Below, piece by piece: positions 457 through 59,188 of a DNA stretch of 64,000 bases. Source of the stretch: Spizellomyces punctatus DAOM BR117 (lineage: Eukaryota). Where the stretch lies: the NCBI GenBank assembly GCA_000182565.2, contig KQ257464.1; one strand, written 5' to 3'. Positions within the stretch are counted from its first letter, which is position 1. Each line of letters begins with the position of its first letter. The notes beneath the pieces were generated by a model, which was not told the DNA's origin, searched no databases, and saw nothing but the letters and a program-made list of their open reading frames with translations. The translations under genes were made by a program, and so were the position numbers.

Positions 457-975
457 TTTGTATCATAGGACCCACCAACTTCCAAAAGACCGTCCTCGGA
501 CGAGCAGAAAGTAGCTGCAGCACTTGATCAGTTGCGTAATTTTGAAAGTATATTAGTGGAAGAAAGGCGACGATTGGATCAAGAAATGTCAAAGACTGCC
601 AAATAATATTAATACGCCTTTTCATTCGCTACGAGGTGCCTCTGAACGTTTCAAAATCATGATAACTGTATCACATGTAGTCCATAGAATGTGCATGCGG
701 AACGACGCAGCTTTTGGTGTAGAACATAGCAGCTTTTTGGTTAGAGGACTATCTCGTATCTCGTCAAGTGAACTCTAATGATTCCATGCGGAGTCTGTTC
801 AGATACTGACATTCCAAGATGAAGCTACCATAGTGCGGAAGTGATTGAAATGGCACTAGGACCCATTATTATCCGGATTAATCCGGTTAGTCATATCGCA
901 TAATCAGAACCCCCTTCTATCGCTTAATGTTTTTTTTTTTTTTCAGCTGGACCCCATTTTGCCACAATCGAGGTC

Positions 976-983
976 TATAAAAG
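976..983 (+). promoter_or_regulatory. TATA box inside ghost copy 1 (also at 3246-3253 in copy 2)
   Basis: CTATAAAAG followed by a pyrimidine-rich tract, identical in both copies. Confidence 0.5.
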
Positions 984-1079
984 GGGGTCATTACTCCCTC
1001 TTCCCTCTTTCCTCTTTACCCATCCTCGACTCTCGAAGCATCTGCGCAACGCCCACGCAGCACTCTCAAGTCCATCATC

Positions 1080-1314
1080 ATGAGAATGCCGCTCTGGTGC
1101 CGAGGACCTCGCCCTCCCAGCAAAAACAACATAACCCCTTGCAAACGCTGCTACTACTATATTGCTACGATCGCAGGTATGCATTATCTTTGTATTTTCC
1201 CACGCGGATTATCCAGTCTAATTATTCTGATCTACCTTAGTATCTGAACATCCTCCGACTAAAGAATTTCGGAATCAAGGGCTTAGTAGGATTTCTCTCG
1301 TGTGGTGGGCTTAG
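1080..1314 (+). CDS. Putative spliced 56-aa micro-ORF in ghost copy 1 (exons 1080-1176, 1241-1314)
   Basis: catcatcATG context; GTATGC...CTAAT...TTAG intron at 1177-1240; frame preserved in copy 2. Confidence 0.3.
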
Positions 1315-1399
1315 TTACCCGGTTAGAACAACCGTAATGTATTGCATGTGTAATTGGGCCTAGTAGTAGTTGGTTGGTTGTAAGGAGGGAATTACTTGG

Positions 1400-1489
1400 C
1401 TTTTCCGAACCAGTTGTCGCCGGTTTATTCCCTGGTGTAGTAGCTAGTGCCAGTTTCTGTCACCTAATACACTATCCAAGATCTCCGAC
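1400..1489 (+). ncRNA. Ghost omegaRNA 1 (scaffold ~1400-1474, guide from 1475 TCCAAGATCTCCGAC)
   Basis: CTTTTCCGAACCAGTTGTCGCCGGTTTATTCCCTGGTGTAGTAGCTAGTGCC aligns with the scaffold 3' of the Fanzor ORF (50931-50994); ends in CACTA. Guide length is inferred. Confidence 0.75.
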
Positions 1490-3063: not shown

Positions 3064-3098
3064 TTCCCACCAACGCAAATAAATACATATATACATAA

Positions 3099-3737
3099 AT
3101 TGATGGCACTAGAACTCATTATTATCCGGATTAATCCGGTTAATCATATCGCATAATCAGAACCCCCTTCTATCGCTCAAAGCGGTGAGGCATGCTAATG
3201 TATTTTTTTCTTTTTCAAACTGTGGTGAGGCGCATGCTGAAGGTCTATAAAAGGGGGTCATTACTCCCTCTTCCCTCTTTCCTCTTTACCCATCCTCGAC
3301 TCTCGAAGCATCTGCACAACGCCCACGCAGCACTCTCAAGTCCATCATCATGAGAATACTGCTCTGGTGCCGAGGACCTCGCCCTCCCAGCAAAAACAAC
3401 ATAACCCCTTGCAAACGCTGCTACTACTATATTGCTACGATCGCAGGTATGCATTGTCTTTGTATTTTCCCATGCATATTCCGAGTCTAATTCTGATCTA
3501 CCTTAGTATCTGAACATCCTCCGACTAAAGAATTTCGGAATCAAGGGCTTAGTAGGATTTCTCTCATGTGGTGGGCTTAGTTACCCGGTTAGAACAACCG
3601 TAATGTATTGCATGTGTAATTGGGCCTAGTGGTAGTTGGTTGGTTGTAAGGAGGGAATTACTTGGCTTTTCCGAACCAGTTGTCGCTGGTTTATTCCCTG
3701 GTGTAGTAGCTAGTGCCAGTTTCTGTCACCTCTACAC
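3099..3737 (+). mobile_element. Fanzor 'ghost' element, copy 2 (left TIR eroded)
   Basis: Direct repeat of 833-1472. CATA at 3094-3097, but the first ~11 bp of the left end (GTGCGGAAGTG) are missing. Right end ...CTCTACAC followed by TA (3738-3739). Confidence 0.85.
3350..3580 (+). CDS. Putative spliced 56-aa micro-ORF in ghost copy 2 (exons 3350-3446, 3507-3580)
   Basis: Same ATG, splice sites and stop as in copy 1. Confidence 0.3.
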
Positions 3738-3754
3738 TAAAAGTGCCAGCCCTG
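3666..3754 (+). ncRNA. Ghost omegaRNA 2 (scaffold ~3666-3739, guide from 3740 AAAGTGCCAGCCCTG)
   Basis: Scaffold homologous to 50931-50994; stems GAACCAG/CTGGTTT and GTGTAG/CTACAC can pair fully. Confidence 0.75.
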
Positions 3755-35129: not shown

Positions 35130-35537
35130 GATAGTTCATGAGCATGGCAAACTCGTTAGGACTCTCCTCAGCAGCTGGAGCCGCTCTTAATGGTTGAGGA
35201 GCTCCGCAGATCTCCCATTTCCCTATGCAGACGCATAGAGGTCACAACTCGCGTTACTCTTGAAATATTCGATATGAGTAAATAGGTCACAAAGTCGTTT
35301 CTGTGCATACCTCCTTGTTGACCAAAGCTTGGCCAACACAGCTGCCTTCCTGCGGCTTATCTGCCTTTGATTGTTGGACAAAAGTATGTGCCTCTCCGTC
35401 CACCTCCTTTCGACAGGCCACTCTGGCTCTTTCCTCCTCCGCTTTGAGCTCCTCAAGCTCCCTTTCCGTCAATCATGCTCTTTCTCCAACTTGGCCAACT
35501 CCTTCTCCAAGTGTTCTCGCTCCTCCTACTAGTGCAT
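35130..35537 (-). pseudogene. Coiled-coil family copy 1, pseudogene
   Basis: ATG CAC TAG TAG GAG GAG aligns with ATG CTC AAG TTG GAG GAG of copy 3; premature stops. Confidence 0.55.
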
Positions 35538-35842
35538 CCAATCTCCCACAGTTACGGGCCGTTGGATTGGAAAGATTCTGGCTTTTCTCGCCCATGGTAA
35601 ACATTCCAACCTGGCGGCACAGTCACGTACCAAGTATCTGTAACAACGTTACACGTCCTTTTTGGTCAACAAAAAGTCTTCCTGTGTTTAACAACTCGTA
35701 TCAATGTATCCGCCAGACAAGTCGTTCAAATCACAAAGAATTATGCTTGCTAATCATGTTGATGGAATGGCTTGATGAATCCATGAGTGTTTAGAATGAC
35801 GTTGGAATGGCGTGATGAGTCTATAATTGTTTAGAGTTGTCC

Positions 35843-36423
35843 TCAAATGCTAGGTTCGACGTCAAGATCCAGTTTCTTGGGAGCACCATCAGCAGCAGGA
35901 GCCGCATCATCCAAATCATCCAAATCATCCAAAGACGTCAATGGTGTCCTCAAAGCCCCCATCTCCCGATGGAGATACAATGAGGTCGCAGCTTGGGCAA
36001 CTAACGGAGCTTGACCTTGACGCTGAGATTCGAGATGTTTGCGGTTCTAGATATTGGATGTAAGGTCGAACATTGCAAAACGAGCAGTATAATAGGTATC
36101 GGTTTTGTGCTTACCGCCTTCCTGAGTTCCCTAAGTTTGTCCTCCACCGCTATCTTCTTCTTACGCAACTCTGTCTTCTTGTTAATCAACTCTATCCTCT
36201 TCTTGAGCAACTTATTCCTTGTCTCGGTCAACTCGTCCATCTTGTTCCACATCGCCCAAAGCTCCGCCCCCTTTACACGCTGGCTTTTCAACTCTAGCAG
36301 CTCAATTCTGATCGGCAATATCTCCAGCTGTAGCAAGTCATCCTCTTTGTTTACCTCGGCTGCCTCCTTCTCCAAATTTTCCAGCTCTTGTTCCAAACTT
36401 TCCCGCTCCTCCATCTTGAGCAT
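35843..36423 (-). CDS. Coiled-coil family copy 2 (two exons)
   Basis: MLKMEERESLEQEL...VEDKL, GTAAGCAC intron donor, exon 2 ...LHREMGALRTP...DDAAPAADGA...*. Confidence 0.6.
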
Positions 36424-36768
36424 TACCGTTGAATTGGAGAGAAGCTGGCCTTGATATAGTTTTTCTCGCCCATGGGCAAACATTTAGGAATGGCGGCACA
36501 GTCACATACTAAATGTAATCTGTACCAAGAATAACCATCGTTTTGGTCAACAAAAAGGCAAAGGAGTGTTTATTCATAGGATGTAGCCGCAACTATAGTC
36601 TAGAAGAAAAAGATGTGTTTAGCAGTGAACTACTGCGTCCGTAGGCTTCAACGTGGCAAAATATATGTGCGGCACTGCAAAAGTACAGATGCACGGCCTT
36701 AAAGAAACAAAATGCAAAAATTAGATGCTGGTCAATAAGATACAAAGATGCTGAATGGCATGATGAAT

Positions 36769-37339
36769 CTATGGTTGTTTAGAAATGCTGGTTTCGAAAT
36801 CCTGGGAAGCACCATCAGCAGCAGGAGCCGCATCATCCAAAGACGGCATTGGCTTCCTTAAAGCTCCCATCTCTCGATGGAAACGCAAAGAGGTCAAAAC
36901 TCTGGTCACTACCCGAGCTTGAGCTCGACGACGTTTGCGGGTCTTAATAATTATTGGATATGAGTGTTTGCAAGAAGGCAGTATAATAGGTAGGTTATCA
37001 AGTCGGTTTTGTGCTTACCTCCTTGATAAGCTTGTCCTCTGCCGCCTTTTTCTTCTGTCTCAACTCTTTTTCCCTCTGATACAACTGTTCCCTCCTCTCA
37101 TACAACTCGCTCCTCCTGTCAATCAACTCGCTCGTCCTGTCAATCAACTCTATCAATCTCTCCCGTAACTCATCCTCCCTATCCTCCAACCACGAAGGTT
37201 CCTCCACTAGTAAGCGCCGTCTTTTCAGCTCCTGCCGCTCAATGTCGACCGTTCTTATCTCCTGCTGCAGCATTTCATCCTCTTTCTTTAACTTGGCTAG
37301 CTCCTTCTCCAACTTATCCCGCTCCTCCAACTTGAGCAT
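36769..37339 (-). CDS. Coiled-coil family copy 3 (promoter inverted)
   Basis: MLKLEERDKLEKEL...AEDKL, same intron, exon 2 FHREMGALRKP..DDAAPAADGA. Confidence 0.55.
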
Positions 37340-37733
37340 CCAATCTCTTACAGTTAATGGCCGTTGAATTGGAAAGACGCTTTGTTTTGCCTTTCGCCTT
37401 TTTGTTGACCAAAACGATGGAACAGATTTCATTTGGTACGTGACTGTGCCGTTAATGTTGAATGTTTGGCCATGGGCGAGAAAGGCTATATCAATGCCAT
37501 CAATCGGTGTTTATTCATAGGATGTAGCCGCAACGGTGTGGCCTGGAAGAAGGCTTCAAAGTGGCAAAATATGTCTGCGCCAATGCATATGTACAGATGC
37601 ACGGCTTTAAGAAACTAGTGCAAAAAAGTTATGCTGGTTATATCCAAAAACGCTAAACATCTGAATGATTTGTTGCATCTATTGTTGATTAGAAAGATCC
37701 TGAACACTAGTTTTGAGATCCTGATGAGCACCA

Positions 37734-38406
37734 TCACGCGGCAGGAGCCGCGTCACCCAATAACGATTGCGTCCTCAAAGTGCCCATCTCCCGATGAAGA
37801 CGCAAAGAGGCCGCAACTTGGGTAACTACCCGAGCATGACCTCGACGCCGGGATTTGAGACGCCTGCGGTTCTTAAATATTGGATGTGAGGTTGAAATTT
37901 TGCAAGACAGCAATATAATAGGTAAGTCATAGACTTGGTTCTGTGCTTACCTTCTGGTGGACCTCCGCAAGCTCGGCAATCACCGTGTCTTTCCTCTGTA
38001 TCAACTCAAAGAGGCTATTTTCCAGCTCCCTCGTCCTATTTCGCAGCTCGATCATCCTTGTGAGCATAGCGTCCGCATTCCCGCCTCGTTCCACTACCCT
38101 ATCCCATTCAACCTGAACCGCCAGCAACCCTTGATCTGTCTGTTGCTCCTCTTTGCGTATCTCAGCCAGCTCTTTTTCCAACTTTGCCACGTCTATCTTA
38201 TGTCGCAGCTCATCCTTCCTATTTTGTAGCTCCATCATCCTTGTAATCAAAGCGTTCCCATTCCCACCCCGCCCCACTACCCCATTCCACTCAACTCGAG
38301 TCGCCCTCAACTCCTCCGCCGTCCGCTCCTCCTCGCTCTGTAACTCGGCAAGCTGCTCGCCCAAGTCTTTGCGCTGTTGCAGTGCAAGCATTCTATCCTC
38401 CACCAT
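37734..38406 (-). CDS. Coiled-coil family copy 4 (internal duplication)
   Basis: Two VEW..VV.RGGN..A..TRM.EL.NR units; same intron; exon 2 LHREMGTLRT..GDAAPAA*. Confidence 0.55.
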
Positions 38407-38789
38407 GGAGGGTAGTTTGCAGAAAAGACGCGGGCCTTGAATGTAGAATTATTGTTAGCAATTGACCTTTTGTTTTTGATCTCCCGAACCTAGAATTCAC
38501 CTCTAGGCCTGGATATAGTAATTGATCCTTTCTCGATCACGCAAAGGTGGCACGGTCACGTACCAAATGCACATCTGTAAACATCATTTTTGGGTCAACA
38601 AAATAGACAGAGGATGACAATTGGTGTTTCTTTATAGTAATAGCCTCATTTGGTTGAGTTCTGCATGTCTATTTCGATGGAATAAGTCAACAGCCCCGTA
38701 ATCTATAACAGACGTTGCTCCAGATCTACCGTGACTAAAATGACGGTCTTTAGCAAAGCTGCTGCAAACTACCCTCCATAGAGGATAGA

Positions 38790-38978
38790 ATGCGTGCGCT
38801 GCAGCAGCGCAGAGATTTGAAAGAGGACTTGGCCAAGTTACATAGAGAGCAGGCGGTATTGGACTGGCAGATTGAGGACGGGAGCCATGGACGAGATCCA
38901 ACGAAACAAGCAATGAAAGTGTATTTACAAGATGCAAAAAGAAAGACAAACCTACCCGTCATGTCGTTATTCACGTGA
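38790..38978 (+). pseudogene. Coiled-coil family copy 5, 5' fragment head-to-head with copy 4
   Basis: MRALQQRRDLKEDLAKL resembles MLALQQRKDLGEQLAEL; shares the upstream CAAACTACCCTCCAT in inverted orientation. Confidence 0.45.
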
Positions 38979-39408
38979 TATCTCCCAAATCTCTCACGTG
39001 AGATCGACAAGGGCGACCATGGAACACTCCCGATGGCTACCGTGGCTAACTCACACATCTTGAACGATTGCCTACTGTACATATCGACTATTTACAGCTG
39101 CAACTCGTTAAGCCAACGATAGAGAATCACATTAACATACTATTGCTTTTTTATTCTGACCTTTTGTTAGGCCGTACTCTGCAGCCTTAACTGCCAAGTC
39201 ACTATGAATAAAAACAAACATGCTTCCCTTTTTTCCCTTTTGCGTTTGAACGGGTGGTACGTGACTGTACCATCACACTCTTACCAGGGTCGGAAAGAAC
39301 TGGACTATTTATAAAAATGTGGGGATGAAGGAGGATCCTCCAATGCTAAAGCTAGAGATATAGTATTTACTTTACACATGCGGAGGGGAGAGTAAGTTGG
39401 AAGTCAGC

Positions 39409-39644
39409 ATGGCGGCCAATAGGATTTCCGCGGCAGAGAAGCTCAAGCGCGGATTGGCCAAGGTGGCAGAGTTGGATAAAGAGAGGGCATTACCCAAACT
39501 GTGACTTCGTTGCGTCTCAATCGGGAGATGGGGGCTCTGAGGACGCCATTGTCGTCTTTGGGTGACGCGGCTCCTGCCGCGGATGGTGCTCACCAGAACC
39601 TGGACATCAAACCTAGCGTTGAAGACTTTTCTGAACAATCATAG
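39409..39644 (+). pseudogene. Coiled-coil family copy 6, internally deleted
   Basis: Short exon-1 remnant fused out of frame to exon 2 (CGGGAGATGGGGGCTCTGAGGACGCC...GACGCGGCTCCTGCC). Confidence 0.5.
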
Positions 39645-39816
39645 ATTCATCCAAGCCATTCAGACGCCAACATGATTAGCAACTCGGATCTTCTTTTGTT
39701 AACCAGGATAATATTGCATTTGTTTGTCAAAAGCCGTACTTCGATCCATATGCAGTGTGAGAGCAACGCACATGTTCAATGATCCGTCTCCCGAATAAAA
39801 CTAGAGACACAGATGG

Positions 39817-40060
39817 CCACCTCGGAAGCCAACGACCACCCATTACCCCATCTCATCATAACGTTCTGGCTGTTTCTAGGCCACATAATCATCCCGGACT
39901 CATGTGGCGACGTACTACGATCGCCAGCCCTGTATGACTAAACACAAATCCCCACCTCGCCAGCCAACGCCCCCTATTACCCACTCATCAAAACATCTTT
40001 GGTCTGGCCTGTGCCTAGGCGATACATTCATCCCAGACTCAAGTGGCAACGTACTATGAA
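39817..40060. repeat. Degenerate ~105-bp direct repeat (39817-39920 and 39952-40060)
   Basis: CCACCTCG..AGCCAACG...ATTACCC...CTAGGC...TCATCCC.GACTCA.GTGGC.ACGTACTA occurs twice. Confidence 0.7.
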
Positions 40061-40660
40061 TAAACATAATTGAATCCTGCATTCTTGTACTACACTATGA
40101 ATAAGCAAATTGACCAAAACCACGGGTATTCTTGTAACAGATTTCATTTGCTACGTGACTGTGCCATCCATTTGTTTGCATGATCGAGAAAAGAACACTT
40201 ACTATATCAAAGCCCAGCGTCTTTGCTCTAATCCTGCTTTTCGCTAAAAAGCTGTTGGACTAGTTATTTTTGGCTCGAGCATTCAAGGTATGTACAAAGA
40301 GTAAAAGATATGGTGGGAATAACTTAAAAGGAGGGCAATGGGGGGGTCCCCCGAAGAGAGGTAACTAGTTTTGACAAGATGGATATTCCACTCACTCTTG
40401 AGCAAAGATGCAACTGAAAGGGCCATCAAGGAGCGCAAAAAGCGCACGAAGCGCGCAACACGAACGAGGTTCATTATTTTTTGAATGTATTTCACTGAAG
40501 TTTTACTGATCAAAAATTCATCTATTAGAGACATCGCCTCGAGGTTTGGCCATGGTGTTTGGACTGTTACACTATGAACTTCAACTTATAGTCACTTTTG
40601 CAATTAAGGTCCGACGTGATCAACGTCTTTTCCGGGCTTCTTCCCGTGAAGATTGCCGGG

Positions 40661-41292
40661 ATGGTGGCCGAAGAGCGGCCCCCAACGGCGGGGGCCAAGA
40701 TGCGTGCCTTGGGGGAGAGGGATAAGTTGCACGAGGACCTGGCTGCGTTGGTGAGAGAGCAGGAAGAGATGGAGGTGGAGATCCGGGCGGTGGAGAAGGA
40801 GGAGGACGAAACCAAGCAGAAGCTCGTTGCGGTGATGGCTGAGATGGGGGTGTTTGCAAAGCCGGGGCGAGAGGGGGAGGAATGGAAGGTGCTGTATGAC
40901 CGGATGAGAGAGTTGTGGGGGGTGCAGAGCGAGGTGGAGGCCAGGAAGAAAGAGCTGCAACGGAGGAGAAAGGTGGTGGAGGACAAGCTTACCGAGGTCT
41001 ATCAGCAGGTAAGCACAGAACCAAGTTTATGACCTACCTATTATACTGCTTTCTTGCAAACGTTCACCTCATGTCAAAAATATTCAAGATTCGCAAACGT
41101 CTTAGATCTCAGATTCGAGCTCAGGCTCGGATAGCGACCCGAGCCGTGACCTCTCTGCGTCTCCATCGGGAGATGGGAGCTCTGAGGACCTGCCCTTCCC
41201 CTGTGAGGGATGAGGCGGCTCTTGCCGCTGAGGGTGTTCTCGCACCATGCAAGTCCCCTGGGGAGACAGCAGGGGACGGATCCAGCAGTTGA
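40661..41292 (+). CDS. Coiled-coil family copy 7 (two exons)
   Basis: MRALGERDKLHEDL...VEDKL, GTAAGCAC donor at ~41009, exon 2 LHREMGALRT..DEAALAAEG. Confidence 0.6.
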
Positions 41293-41617
41293 GCCCAACG
41301 ATCAACACAGCTATCGGGAGGAGATGGATCCAGCGGTTGAGCCCAACGGTCAACACAGCTATCGGGAGGAGATGGATCCAGCGGTTGAGTCCAACGATCA
41401 CCACAGCTCTTGTTCTTTTGGCACGGGGAGACAGTAGAGAACGGATCCAGCAGTTGAGCCCAGCGATCACCACAGCTCTTGTTCTTTTTGCACGGGGAGA
41501 CAGTAGAGAACGGATCCAGCAGTTGAGCCCAGCGATCACCACAGCTCTTGTTTCTTTTGGCACGGGGAGACAGTAGGGATTGGATCCAGCAGTTGAGCCC
41601 AATGATCAACACAGCTA
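41262..41617. repeat. Compound minisatellite with six cores
   Basis: GGATCCAGC(A/G)GTTGAG(C/T)CCA at 41278, 41326, 41374, 41443, 41512 and 41582 (periods 48, 48, 69, 69, 70). Confidence 0.9.
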
Positions 41618-41694
41618 CCGGCAGACGACGAACCACCACCACAGATTTCGTACGTTTGGCACGGCTCAGTTTCCGTACTCCTTTGATCCAACCC

Positions 41695-41810
41695 GAACCC
41701 CTTGTCGTGCTCGCGATGACCCATTGTCATGACTTAACTCGAATCCTTTGTCATGCGCGATGACCCAATTGTCGTGACCCAGCTCAATCCCCTTGTCGTG
41801 CATGATGACG
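41695..41810. repeat. ~45-bp degenerate tandem repeat, ~2.5 copies
   Basis: CC(C/T)TTGTC(G/A)TGC...GATGAC units. Confidence 0.6.
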
Positions 41811-48418: not shown

Positions 48419-48867
48419 GGTTGATGAGGTTCGTATCTCAAGTGAACCCCGATTACAAAAGGGATTCGTTATGATGGGGGAGAGCCTACCCAGTTCTACC
48501 TACTTTATAAAACCAAGTTACTTGCAACACTGAAAAATTACAAGGTTTTTTTCTTTGATTTTGTTTGTTTGGCGGTTCACAAATGATCTATAGCTCACTA
48601 AAAACTAGCGTACTATACCCTTTACGCGTTTCCTCCAATTTTGTTCTTCTTCTGCTGGATTGGTGCTAGAATTCGGCTTTTGCAAAAAAGATGGGGGATT
48701 TTTGTATCATCAAAGAATGCCGTCGTTGTTCAACGAAAACGTGACAAGCACACTCTGGTGTGCAGTCCACCACGCCAAAGTTATCTGCCAAGATTTCTGC
48801 ACACCCAATACTGCGCGTACAAGGGCGGATCTTTGTTGGAACGTCACCGCGCGTGTGTGTATGCATA

Positions 48868-48898
48868 GTGCGGAGCCGATGGGTATTGGCACTAGTAC
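48868..48898 (+). repeat. Left terminal inverted repeat (~31 bp), preceded by TAM CATA (48864-48867)
   Basis: Its reverse complement GTACTAGTGCCAATACCCATCGGCTCCGCAC matches the visible part of the right end. Confidence 0.85.
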
Positions 48899-48972
48899 AA
48901 AGATTCCAACCATTTTAATCATAATTTTACTCGATTTAGACTCATGAACTATGGTTTGATCCAAAAAAATCC

Positions 48973-48979
48973 TATATAA
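48973..48979 (+). promoter_or_regulatory. TATA-like box upstream of Fanzor
   Basis: TATATAA ~50 bp before atcatcATG. Confidence 0.45.
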
Positions 48980-49029
48980 GTTGTCGTGCCCATTTTCCCA
49001 GGCTTTCATCTTTTTCCACAGATATCATC

Positions 49030-50916
49030 ATGCCACCAAAAAAGAAGCAAAAGCTTGAAAACCCTACTTGCTTACATACCTGCAACAAGACTTCCTTTGC
49101 AAAAGCTTTCCTGCCAAACGACATCTACCGCCAACGGCTTTTAGATTACATCGCCATCATCCATCAACTTGCTGACCATGCTTCCCACGCTCTCAAATTC
49201 TACATCCTATCTGCACCATCCTTTCCCACGTTAGATCAAGATACAATCGAAGCGATTCTCTATCTTCTCAACAAAGGAGAGGCTTGGCAACCAAAAGCTG
49301 ATGCAAAGAAGGCGCTACGTGGATGCTTGGTGCCATATATTCGTCGGTACTGCCACATCGTCAGCTTCGTTCATCCAAATCTACAAAAAGAGCAGCAGTC
49401 AATCAATTACCTGACAGCGAGTATGATGACGAACCTGAAAGTCAACGTTCAAGAGCATTTCATGCAGATGCTCCTTCGGTATATCAATCTGCGGCTCGAT
49501 GTGAAGGGACAGAAGCAGCGACTGCCACTGAAAAGCGATGCACGGAAAGCTTTCTTTACTCGACTACGCTACTTAAAGTCAGTTTTTCTTTTTGATATCG
49601 TGCCCGAGTCGCTGGATGACTTGACCGCTGAAGAGAGTGAGCTTCTAGAAGAGATGTGGTCCTTCATTCCCCTTTCCGACCAGCCGCTCGCATATTCGGT
49701 TGCTGTTGACCCTCTCGCTTTCTTTCCTGCTTACTGCAAACTCTCTGTGCTGTATGAACGACATGGCTTCCGTCGGTTCAGCGCAATACCTCTTCGTCGG
49801 TCTCTGATTCAGTCCCATATTCGCATCGACACGGTCATCCTGTACCAGCATATCCTTTGCATCACGCGACGGGAAGCGGAAACTGTTGAAAAGGTCGACT
49901 TATGGTTGCGCATCTGTAATCTGCGGAACAAGGCTTTTAGATCTCGTCGTGGAATGTGTTTTGAAGGCTCGATCACGACAGACGGTACCTCGGTGTCAGT
50001 TTACTTGAAACATCCTGAAGCTGACAAGTATGGAAAGCGCAGCGGCGGAGGGAAAAAGTCAGCAAACACAATGGAGGCAGAGGTTAAAGCGCAATATGTG
50101 GAGAAAAACTTACCTGCTTGTCGAGTAGCAGAGAATGTTGTTGTTATCGACCCAAACAAGCGCGACATTCTCTACTGCCAAGACAGCATTGGTACAACAT
50201 TTCGCTACACCGCCAACCAGCGAGCCATGGAGACAGGTAGCCGTCGACAGCAAAAGGAACGACAGCAGATGAAGAAGGGGGAAATTGACCTCATAGAATC
50301 ACGTATCCCTAGCCACAAAACAATGAACCTCATGGATTTTACTCGCTACCTTCTCGTTCGCCGCGCGGATTCGGATCGTCGCAAGGAATTCTACTCACAT
50401 CCTGCCCACACGCGGTGGAAGTGGCACTCCTTCATCAATCGGCAGCGAAGCGAATCAGACCTCATAAGCGCCATGCGCAACAAATACGGTGAAAACTTTA
50501 CCGTTGTGATGGGTGATTGGAGCGACGCCGGTCGAACTGCCAGATTTCAGACCTCATCAAAGACAAAAGGTTGGCGCACCCTCTTTAAGCGGAACAGGAT
50601 CAACTGCTTCCTTCTCGACGAGTACAAGACCTCATCTGTCTGCCCTCACTGTTCATCCGATGACTTCCTTGAAAAAGGCTTCAAAACACGACCTCATTCA
50701 AGACCTTGGCGACGACGAGAAGGCAATGTTGAAAAAGTCCATGGATTGCTGGGTTGTACCAACCCTAACTGTTTGCAGCAAGACTGGACATCGGGAATGC
50801 GCTACTGGAACAGGGACACACTGAGCACCTGCAATATGCTGATGATCGTGCAATCAATTATGGATGGACACGGTAGACCAGAGGTGTTCAGCAGGAGTGT
50901 TCCAGCCGTAGCGTAG
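49030..50916 (+). CDS. Fz1: Fanzor1 RNA-guided DNA endonuclease (eukaryotic TnpB/Cas12 relative), 628 aa, intronless
   Basis: NLS-like PPKKKQK; TDG motif; RuvC I VVIDPNKRD (D374), RuvC II LLDEYKTSSVC (E531), zinc finger CPHC...CTNPNC, RuvC III WNRD (D596). Closely resembles SpuFz1 as I recall it. Confidence 0.96.
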   Translation: MPPKKKQKLENPTCLHTCNKTSFAKAFLPNDIYRQRLLDYIAIIHQLADHASHALKFYILSAPSFPTLDQDTIEAILYLLNKGEAWQPKADAKKALRGCLVPYIRRYCHIVSFVHPNLQKEQQSINYLTASMMTNLKVNVQEHFMQMLLRYINLRLDVKGQKQRLPLKSDARKAFFTRLRYLKSVFLFDIVPESLDDLTAEESELLEEMWSFIPLSDQPLAYSVAVDPLAFFPAYCKLSVLYERHGFRRFSAIPLRRSLIQSHIRIDTVILYQHILCITRREAETVEKVDLWLRICNLRNKAFRSRRGMCFEGSITTDGTSVSVYLKHPEADKYGKRSGGGKKSANTMEAEVKAQYVEKNLPACRVAENVVVIDPNKRDILYCQDSIGTTFRYTANQRAMETGSRRQQKERQQMKKGEIDLIESRIPSHKTMNLMDFTRYLLVRRADSDRRKEFYSHPAHTRWKWHSFINRQRSESDLISAMRNKYGENFTVVMGDWSDAGRTARFQTSSKTKGWRTLFKRNRINCFLLDEYKTSSVCPHCSSDDFLEKGFKTRPHSRPWRRREGNVEKVHGLLGCTNPNCLQQDWTSGMRYWNRDTLSTCNMLMIVQSIMDGHGRPEVFSRSVPAVA

Positions 50917-50930
50917 ATTGGTTAGATTAG

Positions 50931-50994
50931 CTTTTCCGAACCGGTTATCGCCGGTTCAATCCCTGGTGCGGGTGCTAGTGCAATACCCATCCGC
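50931..50994 (+). ncRNA. Fanzor omegaRNA scaffold (3' end and guide hidden by gap)
   Basis: Starts 14 nt after the stop; hairpin GAACCGG-TTATCG-CCGGTTC, then AATCCCTGGTGCGGGTGCTAGTGC-AATACCC; overlaps the right TIR. Confidence 0.88.
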
Positions 50995-51094
50995 NNNNNN
51001 NNNNNNNNNNNNNNNNNNNNNNNNNNNNNNNNNNNNNNNNNNNNNNNNNNNNNNNNNNNNNNNNNNNNNNNNNNNNNNNNNNNNNNNNNNNNNN
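50995..51094. other. Assembly gap (100 N)
   Basis: Run of N. Confidence 1.
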
Positions 51095-51268
51095 CGTGCT
51101 AGCCAAGGTGGCACCGACGGTTGTCCTTTATCCAAAAAGCATAGAGCCCATCATTTTATAAAATTCCAATACCCAACCAAAACCTCATGTAAAAAAATTA
51201 TCAAAATACAAAAAAATAATAAACCCTCCACACCACACTCACAAAAAAAGAAACACATGTAGCACCTC

Positions 51269-54200
51269 TTATCCTCCACCCCTCCTCCGCTCTTGCAAAC
51301 GTCCATTCATACCCCTGGACACTGGCGCCCACCGCGGTGAAAGCTGCCCAGATCGATTCGATCCCCGGTACGCAGTGGACTCATTGGAATATGTACTTGT
51401 GCTCTCCCCATAATACCGGCCTGAACTCGACACCCGCTGCCGGTCTTCGTACGTATCCCGTTCGGTGCGATCGTCTTCTCGTGTGTATGCGTCCCGAAGA
51501 CTTCGTCGTTCCCTCAACATTTCCCTCCCAGAGTCTCTAGCAGGCTCTCTGGCCACCTCCCACCCCCGCTCCTCCTCACCCTCCCGCACCCTCAAATGAT
51601 GCAAAGAAGCCACCGCTTTTGCTAACCTCTCATTCTCATTCTCCAAAGCCAATTTCGCATCTTTAAGCCGTATCACCTCCTCCTCCAATTCCCTCATACG
51701 TGGGTCATCCTGTTCAAGGTCCAACAAATTCTCCCAGCTGCCTACCGCGCTACGTGATAAAATCGGTTCCGTGTCACCACAGAGTTCTGCGAAAAAATGC
51801 TGTTGGCTTTCGGATAGGGCTTGTTTCCAGTTACGTGCTAGTATCCTATATCATTCGATCCAGTCAGTGATGGTTTGGCACAAACTCCTTTGTGTTTATA
51901 CACGTACCGCATTCGAATGAGACTCCTCACGACATCCACACATCTCTTCAACTTGATAACAGGTTTGTCGGACCCGACGCCAGAGGGTTCAAGCCCCACT
52001 CCTGCCAATGTCGCTCTGTGACTTTGTACAGTTAAAGAGAGATACAATTTCTGGTACTTGAGGTCTGCTCGCCAGGTCGACAGCCTGTCAACCAGTGCGC
52101 GGAGGTAGAGAACCTCGGATATGAGCTGACGGCACTGTTCCTTAATACTACAAAAAAAGCACCCCCACAGATTCGGTGAGTACGATATAAACACTCGTAA
52201 CAAACACAATACAAAAAGGGGAAGCTTACCGAGACATGTCCACCTTGGCCACTTTGTCATCATTCTCCCCGAGAACAGCCATCACATCATGCCCAGACCC
52301 AGATACATCCCCAATGGTGTTCTTCAACGTCTCTCGTAACACAACCATCATCTCCCGACTACTCTGCCTGATCTTTTTCAATTCCTTTTGCAACAAGCCC
52401 ACCTCATCTCGTAAGCCTTCATCTCCCGCATCGCTTGGCGACTGGGTTTTCGCATCAGAAGGATGCCGACGGTCGACTAGACGCCCTCGCTCCTTTTCGA
52501 GCCGCAACACTTGAATTTCAGCACTACGCCGTGCGTCTTCCAAATGCTGAACACGTCCATCAAGCCGTCTGATTCGGTCATCCTTCTCAAGTGAAACCTC
52601 TTCCAAATGTCGTATTTGAGTTTCACCTTGCAAGATTTTTTCTTCCAGTCGTTCCTTGACACGACGGAAATCATCCACAATGCGATCTCGCTCTCTTTCC
52701 AAAGCGTCCACAAGTCCTTCAAGTGCCTTGCGCTCAGCAGTGTGCATCTCTTCTTGTGCACTAGCTGCCTCTTGATGCTCGAAAAACTGATTGTTCAGCT
52801 TATCTTCCAGTAGTTTGACATCACTTCGAGCCATTTCCGCATCCTTTGTAGCGGCATCCAATAAATCCACAAGCTCATCAAATTCTTCTCGCATACGAGC
52901 CTGAGCTGCTCGAGCTTTATCTTGTGCATGCATAGCATCCCGCTGCGTTCGGGTGATCAACTCACGTAATGCGGTATTCGCTTCCAGTTCATGTGTCCAC
53001 ACTCTTCGAAGCTCGTCCAACTGTCGCTGGAGCACCTTTTCATTTCCGTTCTGCCGTTGCGTAGACGTTGATTCTTGCGTCATGGATTGGAGAGCATCCT
53101 TCAAGACTTGTGTTTGCATGGCATGGTCCTTGAGCAATGCGTGTGAGTTCTCCAATTGCCGCTGGTACTGCTCGGCTGCTGCTGCCTTTTCGTACAAATC
53201 GGCATACTCGCCAGGCGTAAGGTGATAATTCCCTTCATGGTCAGAGACAGGACGTCCTAATCCACCTTTTGCTGTCGTGTCAATTAATGCCCCCACGGAA
53301 CTGAGTTCCTTTCCAAGAATGACATGCTGATCCTCGACATCATGCAGCTTTGTAATCAAAATATTTAGATCGTCCAAAATCCGCTTTGGCAGGCGCTCAT
53401 AGCCGCCCACTGTCGTGCTGCGCAATAGATCCAAAAATCCATCTTTCCTAGCTACCAGTGCAGCAACCGCCGACTGATAGTCTCCGACAACACCAACCAC
53501 GTGAGAGACTAGGCTTCGCATGTCCGCGATAGAGCTTGTGGCCACGTTCCCGGATGGTGTACGCTTCGCAGGACGCCTAACACGGCCCCCACGAGCCGCT
53601 AACCCATCCTCTTCGTCGTCAGCCTCATATGTATCAGTAGTGTGCCCATCGCGGTTACTCCGCAAATAAAGAGCCTTTTCCTCTGCCAATCGGGCGTCAA
53701 AATCTGCCGCCATGTGTCGAATCTGAGCAGACTTGGCTTCCACCATCTCGCGCAGACCATCAACTTCTTTCTTGAGCTCGTCCCGTGCTATTGCGGCGTC
53801 TTCCAATTGCAATACCCTACTTTGAAGGGCAGTGATTTCCTCTTCCAGTTTGACCACGAGTGCCCGCTTGTCGTCTAGCTCTTCCAGTACCAAATTGTTC
53901 CTTCGTAATTCAATCTCGTTTTCTCGTAGTACTTCATCCGCTTCTCCAAGAGCTCTCTCCAAGCTCTGGACGTCAGCTTCTAAGGTACTCGTTCTGACAT
54001 GTAGCTCATCAATCATCCGCGTTTTTTCCCGTACTTCACTTCTCATTAGGTCTCTCTCCTCAGTCAGCATCGTTACACGATGTCGCAATTGGTCGACGGT
54101 TGCTGCTGTCACGGGCGGCTGAGATAAATCTTTGGAGTGCAGTGTGTCATGGCTCACAGGCGACGTTGCACTGGTATCTGACATCTGGCTCTCGGACACT

Positions 54201-57200
54201 CTTTGCAAATCACGTTTGAGCACCTCCAAGGCGCGTTCCTTGCCCTCCAACTTGAGTTTCACATCGGCCAGCTCCATGGCCAAGGCACTCGACCGGTCCT
54301 GCTCTTCCCGCAGCTTCTCCAGCGCATCGGGGAGGCTCGAGTCTAGGCTGTGGGCCTGAGTAGCCTCATATAGCTCTTTGCTGACGCGCTGAACTTCTTG
54401 TCGCGCATTCTCCAACTCGGTAACGAGTCGAGCAGCCTCATCCCGGCTTTGTTGAACCAGCGCATTATGGCTCTTCTCCATGACCTCCTTCTCGCGTTCA
54501 AGTGCATCAACAGTCGCCCGTAATTGTCGTGACTCTTCTTCGCGTGAGGCAGACAACTCGATGGCCTCATCGAGCTGTCCTCGCAGCTCTGTTTCCACCC
54601 CCTCCAATTTCTTAACCCGCTGCTCCAGCTTGGTCTTTGCTTGCGAGACCGCATCATGTTCGGCGCGTATCTGGTGCAGCCGTTGCTCTACTTCCCCAGC
54701 TGATGCGAGAGACAAGCTTTGCATCTCGACCATGTCTCGCATCTTCCGAGCCAAATCGTTGATGCGCACCAAGAGACGCGTTCGGCTTGCAGTCAGCTCG
54801 TCTAGAGAGCCTTCTGGCGTCGACTCCCAATCAACTGGTGATTGCTCACCTCCACCCACAGCCCCAACGACCCCCTTCATCACATTAACGATATCTTGTA
54901 GCTTCAGTTTCTCCTCTTCATCCCGCTCAGCGAAGCTCTTGATCATAGCGGATTTCTCCTCTTCATGCGCATTCTTCTGTTCACCCATTCTAGTTCGTAT
55001 TTCCTCAAAACTAGTCTGCAAATCCTCCAAGGCCTTCTGAAGTTCCTGTACAAGGGCCCTCTCTTCCTCTAGCAGGCGACCATTTTGCTCCGTACTCTTC
55101 GTCAGAAGCTCGATTTCAGCTTCCAATACAGTATTACGGTGCGCAAATTCATCTTTGGTCGTCTGCAAGTCAATTAGCACTTTGCCTCGTTCATCGAGCC
55201 TGCTTTCGTAGTCCTCTTCTAGCATTGAGATTGTTTCTTCCATTTCGACCAGCTGCCCTTGAAGGGTCTGTACGATGGCAGTACTTCGATCGCGCTCTTC
55301 CATAAGTGAATGCCGCTCCTCTTCCAGAGCAGTCACTTGCGCCTGCAGTTCCTGTGTTCGTGCTTCCAGCACATCCCGCTCAGATGCCAACGTTTCGCGC
55401 TCTTGGGTGATTCTCAAAACTTGGGCGCCTACATCCTCTAATGATGACTGCGCGACAGCATGCCGCTGCTCAGCTTCTTTTTGTGCGGCGGATAATACCC
55501 CACGTTCCTGCTCCATTTGCGCTTCCAGCTCAGGTATCATTTGTTCAAGGGCAGCAACCTTCTCAAGCGCATCTTCCCGTTCCTTCCGGATAATCTCTGA
55601 GACAGTTTCAAGTTCTTGCCGCGCGGCAACTTGCTCGTTTGATGCGGTTTCCAGATCTGTCAACTTTTGTGATATCTCAGCAACAGAAAGCTGCTCTCGC
55701 TCCAATTCCTCTTGTAGATAGGCGATATGCGTTTCCCTTGCATTAAGGGATTGTAGCAAGCGCTCATTCTCTTCGCTTATTTCTCCTACTCTGGCATTGA
55801 CCTCTTCGATTCTTTGTTTCCACACCGAACGCTCTTTCTCTTCCTCATCCTTCCTCTGCCGGAAAGTATCCACGGTCTCCTTCAAAGAATCTAATTCTCT
55901 AATCAAAGCAGCCCGTTCCTCTTCACGAATATCAACTTCCTCGCGCAATGCTCCCTTTTCCTCTTCCAGTGTCATCACACGGGCTTCTAACTCTGTCATT
56001 TTGACAACGCCCTCCTCCATGGCGGTATGAACTCGTTTTCTTTCTACTTCCACAAGCTCAATCTGAGCCTGCAGCTCGTCACATTCTGCTGCCATCCGCT
56101 CGCGCTCCTGCAGCGCTGCGTCGCGTTCTTGGTGCAGACGCTCGATTTCTTCTGTCCTTCCATCAAACTTCTCCATTATTCTAGCTATTCGATCGTGCAG
56201 GCCATCCCGTTCGGCGACAAGTTCGTTGACTTCCGCTAGCCTGCGGTCTCTCTCTTCAGTAACTATATCGAGCTCCTTTTTCAGTTCCTTCGCCTTGTCC
56301 CCGCCTTCAGATACTAAATGATTATACCGCTCGTTCGCCTCAGCAAGTTGGGCTCGCAACACCCTATCGGCTTCTGCCATAGCCATCTGGAGCATCTCTT
56401 TTTCCTCGTTCAACATATCTAACGCCGCTTCAGCATCCGCTAGACCGGCACTCAGCTCCGTAACCTGTCGTGCAGCATTGTCTTTCTCCGTGGCGAACTC
56501 ACGAAGTTTGAGAACCAAGGCTTCTTTCTGAGCTGTTAGCGTTGCAATCTCTCTTTCGCGCGCAATTTTTTCTGGTTGCATGCCTTCAAGTAACTGTTCG
56601 AGTTCAGCTCTTGCAGCTACGACGGAAGCTAGTTGTTCCTGCGCTTCCATCAACTCTTTGATGGATTGGTCCCGCTGATCAAGTACCCCTTCAATTTCAA
56701 GGCTTCTTTCGCGGGTAATGGACGCAATAAGTTCCTCTCGTGCCTGAAGCTCCGCCTCCAACAAGCGCACACGGTCCTCCGTTGATTCTCTTTTCTGAAT
56801 CTCCTCCGCAAGTTGTTGTTGCAATGAATGGACTTCAACAGTCAACTCTTCCGCAGAAGCAGCCAATTGCTCTTCTTTCGCCGCATGCTCCTGAAGCTTC
56901 TGGTTCAAGGATTTGATGTCGTTGTCTTTTGCGGTAGATTCACTGGCTGAGCGGATTCGAAGATCTTCCAACTGTGCAGAGACTTCCTGGAGCTGTCTGG
57001 CCTTTTCGGCCAATTCGGCAGTAGCGTCATTCCGAACCACATCGAGCTGCGATTGTAAATCAGAGATCAAAGCTTGCCGCTCGTTCAACTCATCCATCAT
57101 CATCGACTGCGATCGGTGCAACTCCTCCTTATGGGTCGCGTCCACGCTAGATAATTCTTCAACCTTCCGTTCCAAGGCATCCTTTTCCAACACCGCGTCG

Positions 57201-59188
57201 GCCTTTTCTTTGGTCAGCTGAGTAATCTGCTTTTTCAGATCCGCCACTTGATCAGTTAAATCTCGCATGGTTTCCACGAGTGTGTTGGTATCTTCTGCTG
57301 CTCTCAACTCCCGTTCCTTGATGTTTTCCTTCATCAGGTCCATTTCAGTAAGGAGCTGCTCACGTTCCGTGCGTAAATATTCTACGTCTGATTCCAACTG
57401 TTGGAGTTTACTTTCAGCCTCAGCATTGGCCGAGAGCAATGTGGGGTACTCGTTCCGCACACGTTTCACCTCCTCCTCCAACTCACGTACTCGTATTGTC
57501 ATCGCTTCCTTTTCTCGTGTCGCAGCAGCGCTGCGCCCGCTCATATCCTCTAGCAGCTTCCGCATGTTTCCTACGACCGTGACGTGTTGCCGTCGTATTG
57601 CTTCATTGTCTTGAGCCAGTGTCTGAACTTGCATCTGTAGCTCGCCCTGTGTGCTACTCAGCTCTTCCATTTGCGATGCGTGGGCGTCACGGTCTGCCAT
57701 CAATGTCGCATTTTCGTCGCGTAATGTAGTGACCTCTGCCTTGCATTGCTCGTACTCTTCAGTGATGGCCTGCAGCTCCTCCTTCAGCTTTTGCACCTGA
57801 GAAGTCAATTCGTCTCGTTCTAAAACCAGATCAGCATCGGGCACTGTGGAGGGCCCACTAGACGCCGCTGTGGCAGCTTTGCTTGCTAACAGCTCGTTCT
57901 CCGTAGCAAGGTCGCCATGCGCTTTCTCTAACACAGCCAGCTGCTGCCTGATTTCCGTAATTTCGGACGCTTGCTCCTTGGTAGTTTCTTTGGCATTTGC
58001 AAGCTGATTGCGCAAGTCTTCGATCACTCCCGTTTGTTCTTCGGACGACGTGGCTGCTCCCTGCCCAGCCACCGCCTGCATCCGTTCCAGCTCGCCCCGT
58101 ACTTCCTCCAACTCTGTTGCTTGCTGCTGAATAGTATTTTGTGCACTATCCAGTTGACTTCTTGTCATCTCTAGATCGGCATTCAACTGGGCGCTGTCAT
58201 GATCTACAGATCCGGGTACTTCTGCCGATTGCAGCTGAGAAAGCTCCAACTCCAATTGCTTTATCTTACTCTCGCCCGCAAGCTTCTCCTTTCTAAATAT
58301 CTCCGCATCCTCCCGCATCTGCTGTATCATCTCCAGTGCTTCATCTGAATGTTGTTGTTGCTCCGTGCGCCCTTGTCGCAGATTTTCGTTTTCCTCCTTC
58401 AGCGCTTCCAGCTGCTGTGCCAGTGTGTCCGTTTCATCCAATCTGGTTCGCAGTTGCTGAAGCTCCCGACTAAGCTCGGTACGCTCAGCTTCTGCTTCTG
58501 TTGCAGCACTGCGAGCTTCTTCGAGGTGCGCTGTCAGTTCCGCAATCCGCCCGTCCATATCCGCTGCGACTTCCGCTTTCTCCTGTGGAACACCATGCAC
58601 CTCGAATTGTTTCATCTTCTCCTTGAGCTCCCGATTCTCGTTGGAAAGCTCCCGCATGCGTCTCGCCAAATGTTGATTGTCTGAAGCAAGCTCCCTTACT
58701 CGCTGTATCAGGTCTGGCTCGGCGGGTGGAGGTGGTGTAGCTATTCTTTGTACATTGGGAGGAAATGTGGGCACAGGCGAGCCAGATCTGGGTGGATCCG
58801 TTCGGTTTCGCAGACCTGTGAGGGTTCCCAGTGGCGACGCTGACCTGTTCCAAGACCGCATGAGCATCTTTCTCTCACTTAGAGCCATCCAGAAGAAATC
58901 TAACACATTCTACCACTCCACTTTCACATCCTAGACATACCTCTCATCAGCTGCGATACTGCTCGTGGATAACATACTTCCTGTTCGCGGCCGGCCGCCA
59001 GCATCCGCATGTAAATTCTCCACTGAGCTTTCCGGAGACACAACTCTCGAGTCGGGTGGCGACCCAGCCGTTTCGCTCGGCGTAGCACTCGTGGACCGTG
59101 GGAGGCCAGCAGCTCGTTGCTTCTGGTATTTTGCCAGCTTCTTTTTTGCTGCCGCGAGCTTTTGCTCGCGCATCGATGACGTGTACAT
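51269..59188 (-). CDS. Giant centrosomal coiled-coil protein with PACT domain (pericentrin/AKAP9/Pcp1-like)
   Basis: >2200-aa coiled-coil exon; N-terminal REQKLAAAKKKLAKYQKQR; C-terminal WRADLKYQKLYL...KLKRCVDVVRSLIRMR|ILARNW. Confidence 0.75.

Follow-up and report, generated by a model that had tools for sequence, protein, structure and literature searches.

A ghost Spu-1 element of Spizellomyces punctatus with a damaged left end, and guide-matching scars at left ends across its family

The element at 3100-3739 of Spizellomyces punctatus contig KQ257464.1 (coordinates refer to the window, the whole 64,000-nt stretch of DNA analysed), here called copy 2, is a ghost Spu-1 element: an ordinary ghost of an already-known class with a damaged left end, whose anatomy the original prediction had read correctly. 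The explanation that best covers the whole, to which we assign a probability of roughly 0.7, is that the ghost inserted at CA^TA, took one repair lesion and carries a young, inherited scaffold. Inspection of junctions across the family revealed that altered left ends often start with the element's own guide; across the family this scar signal is strong, with Fanzor-driven homing and one-ended transposition as candidate causes, whereas copy 2 exemplifies it only weakly.

Ghost Spu-1 elements of S. punctatus were published as a class in 2023 (Saito et al., 134 loci; PMC10432273). In keeping with the predicted ghost Fanzor element of constant scaffold and variable guide, copy 2 shares with them, as far as the available text of that paper describes them: i) a conserved body of ~550 nt between 30-nt inverted repeats (IRs); ii) CA upstream of the left IR; iii) the absence of a Fanzor ORF; iv) a 75-nt right-end scaffold with two stems; and v) a flank-derived guide of 14-15 nt. 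It departs from them in its missing outer left IR, so that a complete 30-nt left IR is not present; copy 2 is a damaged member of the ghost Spu-1 elements, not of a different family. All 75 nt of its scaffold are identical to gst91 of PMC13434818, an entry that need not be the copy 2 locus since the sequence occurs in at least 5 genomic copies, and the main text of that paper, in the part available, neither names gst91 nor gives an activity value for it. Compared with the autonomous-type SPu-1 element encoding SpuFz1 (Bao and Jurka 2013, PMC3627910), the ghost likewise has terminal inverted repeats (TIRs), a TA duplication and the same scaffold stem 1, but another IR sequence and a spliced, non-coding-type interior in place of the ORF. 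The available text of PMC10432273 describes no internal spliced unit, junction scars or empty alleles ("intron" has 0 hits in it), and literature searches outside subscription papers returned no report of Fanzor scars or homing, or of ghost splicing.

Copy 2 starts 30 nt past the presumed stop (read by eye) of an Elp5/Iki1 gene, and a Ypi1-like gene of the opposite strand has its 3' end beyond the element. Copy 1 (829-1489, plus strand) is a separate ghost insertion with a TAM, a near-intact left TIR, a weaker scaffold (identical to gst99/gst112) and its own guide; its stem 1 holds an A-C mismatch, shared by 2 of 90 scaffolds, and its right end is class C-like. Further along the window, a full Spu-1 element (48864-50995) contains a SpuFz1 paralogue of 628 aa (49030-50916, plus strand; match to 8gkh, 1204 bits), which is a possible source of nuclease in trans for copy 2. 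The right end and omegaRNA of this Fanzor element (50927-51095) are truncated by a run of N, which leaves its guide unreadable. Two other regions of the window stood out: a cluster of direct and inverted repeats at 35200-41800, with a ~900-bp period and tandem units of 48/69 nt, and a strongly skewed region at 52226-58906 with an open frame of 2226 aa on the minus strand.

The left junction of copy 2 is damaged (all features below are on the plus strand). CATA, published as the TAM of SpuFz1 (PMC10432273), occupies 3094-3097, its TA being the target-site duplication, and the outer terminal sequence is indeed gone after it. Two retained host letters, AA (3098-3099), stand where the outer TIR should begin; they equal the first two letters of both the copy 2 guide and the empty target, and host sequence up to 3099 is common to the empty allele of X15, a related strain. 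Next comes the left TIR remnant (3100-3112), consisting of TTGA and the inner TIR word TGGCACTAG (3104-3112), with AATTGA thus lying between CATA and the word. The family consensus of the outer left TIR is GTGTGGAGGTGATTGAAAA (101 copies), against which the outer 12 bases and three further A are absent. The loss of the outer TIR therefore stood as predicted, while the sequence quoted as lost, GTGCGGAAGTG, turned out to be copy 1's own variant. Nor is the TIR "eroded" as had been proposed: there is a single junction lesion, and elsewhere copy 2 has 1 private substitution (82 aligned copies). Under a motif rule the outer left TIR was unrecognisable in 8 of 119 elements, one of which, L072, has an internal deletion instead. 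Inward of the remnant, a conserved subterminal region with a palindrome follows at 3113-3180, and its inner 27-mer has 134 genomic matches.

The interior appears to hold a transcription unit. A TATA box (3246-3252) is the predicted promoter of an internal Pol II unit, in which a first-exon part with a short ORF (3350-3446) precedes a 60-nt GT..AG intron (3447-3506); downstream lies the 75-nt omegaRNA scaffold (3665-3739), whose end is formed by the right TIR (3710-3737) together with the TA duplication. An intron of this kind was found in 104 of 112 copies by a motif rule, and contigs of RNA run X8 and of X13 skip it at the same sites, although the exon-2 letters in these contigs belong to paralogous copies and not to copy 2. 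All runs were seen as contigs, from which strand, ends and level of a transcript are not readable, and none of the reads or contigs of the runs searched was tied to copy 2. Judged from its motifs copy 2 is likely expressed; moreover, since promoter, intron and scaffold are intact, it is probably still able to make a guide, as first proposed, in an RNA that would measure 88-90 nt. A conserved ghost peptide was considered and rejected: the exon-1 frame is often kept, but the spliced frames vary in length between 5 and 111 aa and are shifted many times in exon 2, where the 56-aa spliced frame of copy 2 is not maintained across copies. According to PMC10432273, SpuFz1 is active with four ghost scaffolds; scaffolds near-identical to that of copy 2 are published as active, and by analogy copy 2 RNA would be bound by the nuclease and direct cleavage.

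Copies 1 and 2 can be aligned over about 640 nt, and segments of copy 2 find their best matches in different relatives, so that it is a mosaic; ghost copies in general look like mosaics. Identity between the two copies ends abruptly after CACTA (3739), and both guides read as originally quoted. Two 8-mers are common to the flank and the scaffold of copy 2; such words occur in 4 of 88 copies and are probably due to chance.

The scaffold of copy 2 pairs more strongly than that of copy 1, as had been noticed: the minimum free energies were -21.9 kcal/mol (z -3.1) and -15.9 kcal/mol (z -1.2), respectively. Against the family, however, copy 2 is typical: the median energy of the class A/C scaffolds (n=90) was -21.5, with 44 of 90 folding at least as well as copy 2 and 5 of 90 having the same sequence as its scaffold. 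The outlier is copy 1, with as poor a fold in just 5 of 90. To judge selection, private substitutions were compared in 82 copies, a one-genome proxy (35 scaffold events, low power, compatible with mild selection) rather than population data: scaffold and interior carried 5.7 and 5.0 per 1000 sites (35 vs 241 events; ratio 1.14, p 0.45), and 61 of the 82 copies had no private scaffold change at all. Within this proxy the scaffold thus changes at a neutral-looking rate, the outcome that had been named in advance as arguing against a preserved guide; at this low power there is no sign of locus-level purifying selection, and the idea that selection preserves the scaffold, a family-median one, at the copy 2 locus is not supported. 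On the other hand, variants shared between copies were rare in the scaffold (17.7 per 1000 sites vs 72-182 in promoter, exons and intron), and the states of the stem-1 pair were G-C in 56, A-U in 17 and other in 8. Rare shared variants together with an equal private rate point to selection acting on spreading lineages, while single copies decay in a neutral-looking manner. On the favoured explanation, copy 2 owes its intact scaffold to its youth and to descent from a subfamily in which that scaffold is common, and not to local selection.

The empty allele of X15 anchors the reading of the insertion. In this strain, whose flanks are about 93% alike, one 84-kb contig spans the locus without the element and joins 3099 to 3740 via 7 other letters; the insertion is thus real, and the host boundary lies two letters past the TAM. 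The predicted 15-nt guide (3740-3754), host flank, is 9 nt short of the TAM-adjacent sequence in the X15 empty allele. Read from the TAM, that allele matches the copy 2 guide at 5 of 15 positions (by the displayed X15 differences), departing from position 3 onward, so that TAM plus copy 2 guide corresponds neither to the X15 empty allele nor to an exact genomic site. The difference would reflect a loss of 9 nt next to the right end in the copy 2 lineage or a gain in X15; if the 7 letters are an X15 gain, the copy 2 guide would fit its own empty site normally. A metagenome scan for sequence to polarise these letters returned 4 distant Elp5 relatives (53-71% identity), and the X8 and X13 contigs stop short of the junction. 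The genome-wide search for CATA followed by the guide, proposed as a check, yielded 0 exact targets of CATA plus 11 nt and 3 with one mismatch (2 in the reversed control), and a target rebuilt from the X15 empty allele had 3 two-mismatch matches vs 9. The guides of copies 1 and 2 are absent from 9 supplementary files of PMC10432273. The X15 allele is in any case a warning that the flank taken as guide may differ from the true pre-insertion site.

In the sequence of events that we favour, a non-autonomous ghost Spu-1 transposon entered the CA^TA site that separates the 3' ends of the Elp5/Iki1 and Ypi1-like genes, as the empty site in X15 shows. Error-prone repair of that site would then, in a single event, have removed the outer left TIR and kept two target letters after the TAM, and the same event probably also took 9 nt from the start of the guide, unless X15 gained them. 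The element would give rise to a TATA-driven, spliced transcript (splicing is seen in paralogues and by extension expected of copy 2) whose 3' part is the omegaRNA, to be loaded onto SpuFz1 made elsewhere, as published for other ghost scaffolds. The result would be a copy with a guide without known target and, because the repair event removed its outer left TIR, probably stuck; the immobility originally predicted for copy 2 is accordingly plausible.

The family was surveyed genome-wide and by junction. The family has at least 134 left ends, counted as genomic matches to an inner word, and 190 matches to scaffold stem 1 (reversed controls 0 and 1), the latter being scaffolds of class A, class C or Fanzor type, to which 27 class B matches are added. 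The census on selected genomic stretches comprised 119 left ends (class A/B inner word) and 170 distinct right ends; excluded were 6 of 88 class A copies whose length fell outside the range 560-900 nt, L131, 11 of 112 elements without a TAM word, 5 of 170 with too little upstream DNA, and 23 matches that were right ends read backwards. Under a rule fixed without reference to the guide, the consensus G after the TAM was missing in 15 of 101 elements: 12 of these matched the first base of their own guide and 6 shared 4-9 nt with it, where shuffled means were 5.5 and 0.14 and where 107 and 0 of 200000 shuffles reached the observed values, although this test was run on the same data that suggested it. 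A second test, independent of the left end, found TAM plus 6-11 nt of own guide in 7 of 165 elements (0.17 expected) and matches of 12 nt or longer in none. The 7 scars span class A, B, C and Fanzor-coding elements, 4 of them come from loci added after the hypothesis was set, and all are shorter than the published cut at +16/17; for SpuFz1, PMC10432273 places the cuts behind bases 16-17 and 20-21 counted from the TAM. Left junctions made of TAM plus 5-11 nt of own guide are those of L057, L062, L104, L139, L176, L184, L191 and L194. At right ends true mirror scars numbered 0 of 121, with one hit inside an intron set aside, and the contrast between left and right ends is a weak one (Fisher p 0.022; 0.14 with the intron hit kept). 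In copy 2 the prefix is 2 nt (AA), which 9% of guides would share by chance, and the consensus-G rule chose an upstream CATA there and scored 0. Two element pairs, L176/L178 and L177/L179 (G000:C3), have identical flanks about 37.5 kb apart, as in a segmental duplication or an assembly repeat. Two diverged SpuFz1 paralogues, L160 and L161 (G000:C9), show 58-61% identity and have stops and a truncated scaffold.

A second ghost class suggests a link between flank motif and nuclease. At L199:779-3070 (G000:C7) lies a second Fanzor1 gene. It is distant, sharing 24-26% identity with the SpuFz1 copies, and ends in a class B right end; its apparent stop probably lies inside a GT..AG intron ahead of the last RuvC motif. 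Class B ghosts share left end and promoter with class A, while their final 175-nt segment is 98% identical to the 3' end of L199; they would thus carry the omegaRNA of the second Fanzor behind the same left end. Most of the 27 class B right ends belong to ghosts after HTTA, not CATA. Among elements with an intact left end, 16 of 18 in class B followed HTTA and 0 followed CATA, whereas 70 of 77 in class A followed CATA. This suggests that the nuclease of the omegaRNA sets the flank motif, although the two classes also have different right TIRs and the element that encodes the second Fanzor sits behind CATA. The published gst8 and gst16 are class B and edited poorly with SpuFz1. In Supplementary Data 1 of PMC13434818, gst71 equals, letter for letter and in reverse complement, the outermost 75 nt at the left of a ghost (L010), and ~60 of 113 entries examined (counted by eye) are of left-end type, including the low-activity gst7, gst73 and gst98; on these entries, the second clade of that paper may be left ends read backwards.

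How did copy 2 acquire its present form? That an old copy eroded slowly and neutrally, or that the junction was misassembled, would find room in the fact that no unique X1 contig runs over the left junction; yet copy 2 has just its single private substitution elsewhere, X15 sets the host boundary at 3099, and an X1 contig covers the right junction without a difference, which together make this reading very improbable. Slightly less credible still is domestication, in which the immobilised ghost would be a stand-alone guide gene selected to steer Fanzor to a useful target. Its intact promoter, intron and well-paired scaffold would suit such a role, as would the function of close ghost scaffolds with SpuFz1 in human cells, but the scaffold is the family median found in 5 of 90, private changes are not depleted in it, the element is missing from X15 and the target search came up empty.

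More weight attaches to two accounts of the junction itself. In the first, which refines the favoured insertion-and-lesion explanation and does not replace it, the left lesion of copy 2 would have been left behind when Fanzor drove restorative homing. Once the element had been excised, its own omegaRNA would direct SpuFz1 to cut the empty allele at 16-21 nt from the TAM; the element would be re-copied by recombination with the filled sister, and a non-homologous tail, incompletely trimmed, would let TAM and first guide letters replace the outer TIR. Sister-templated repair of such a cut would leave a guide-derived tail on the TAM side only, which fits the scars: first-base matches in 12 of 15, 7 of 165 with 6-11 nt, none reaching the cut, 4 of 7 in later loci, and no right-end mirror in 121. 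The same left end joined to the second nuclease's right end and found after HTTA, not CATA, points the same way, although CATA stands at the left end of the element that encodes this nuclease. TnpB/IscB homing (PMC13565253, in the part available) is alike in that TAM and guide rebuild the empty site and cut plus recombination would restore the element; experimental restoration is listed there for TnpB/IscB and not for Fanzor, and here the evidence consists of sequence scars. Against homing at copy 2 stand its mere 2 nt and zero score under the fixed rule, the first test having been made on the data that prompted it, the weak asymmetry, and the right flank, which clean allelic repair should restore but which lacks 9 nt relative to X15; we hold it for copy 2 only tentatively, at rather less than even odds. 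The other account is one-ended transposition, in which the transposase would join the right end at TA and host repair would join the left, copying target letters and trimming the TIR with no Fanzor cut. By cut-and-paste chemistry it would produce the same junction of TAM and target prefix, and under it a fresh insertion may be damaged at either side or both, which is how copy 2 compares with X15. It would, however, lead one to expect mirror scars unless the enzyme favours one end, it does not predict the exact register present in 3 of 6 scars of 4 nt or more, and a transposase between Spu-1 IRs was not found in the literature; we consider it unlikely, without dismissing it. For the family as a whole, the view that damaged left ends are relics of cuts made by Fanzor in the empty allele and of recombination that then copied the element back, with gene-less ghosts borrowing the nuclease in trans, comes close to an even chance but falls short of it.

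The copy 2 locus itself adds little, as ghosts are published and its scaffold is listed; the value lies in the family-wide scar. The scars form a signature that can be counted and tested: they are confined to left ends, match the element's own guide and stay short of the cut. The biological role of Fanzor is described in PMC10432273 as unknown. If the homing reading is true, copy 2 would be a botched case in which mobility and the original guide seed were both lost, and the scars, together with the class B ghosts, would be genomic evidence that an RNA-guided nuclease of a eukaryote carries out restorative homing in the host to which it is native. The family-wide scars may record Fanzor cutting and re-copying its own elements.
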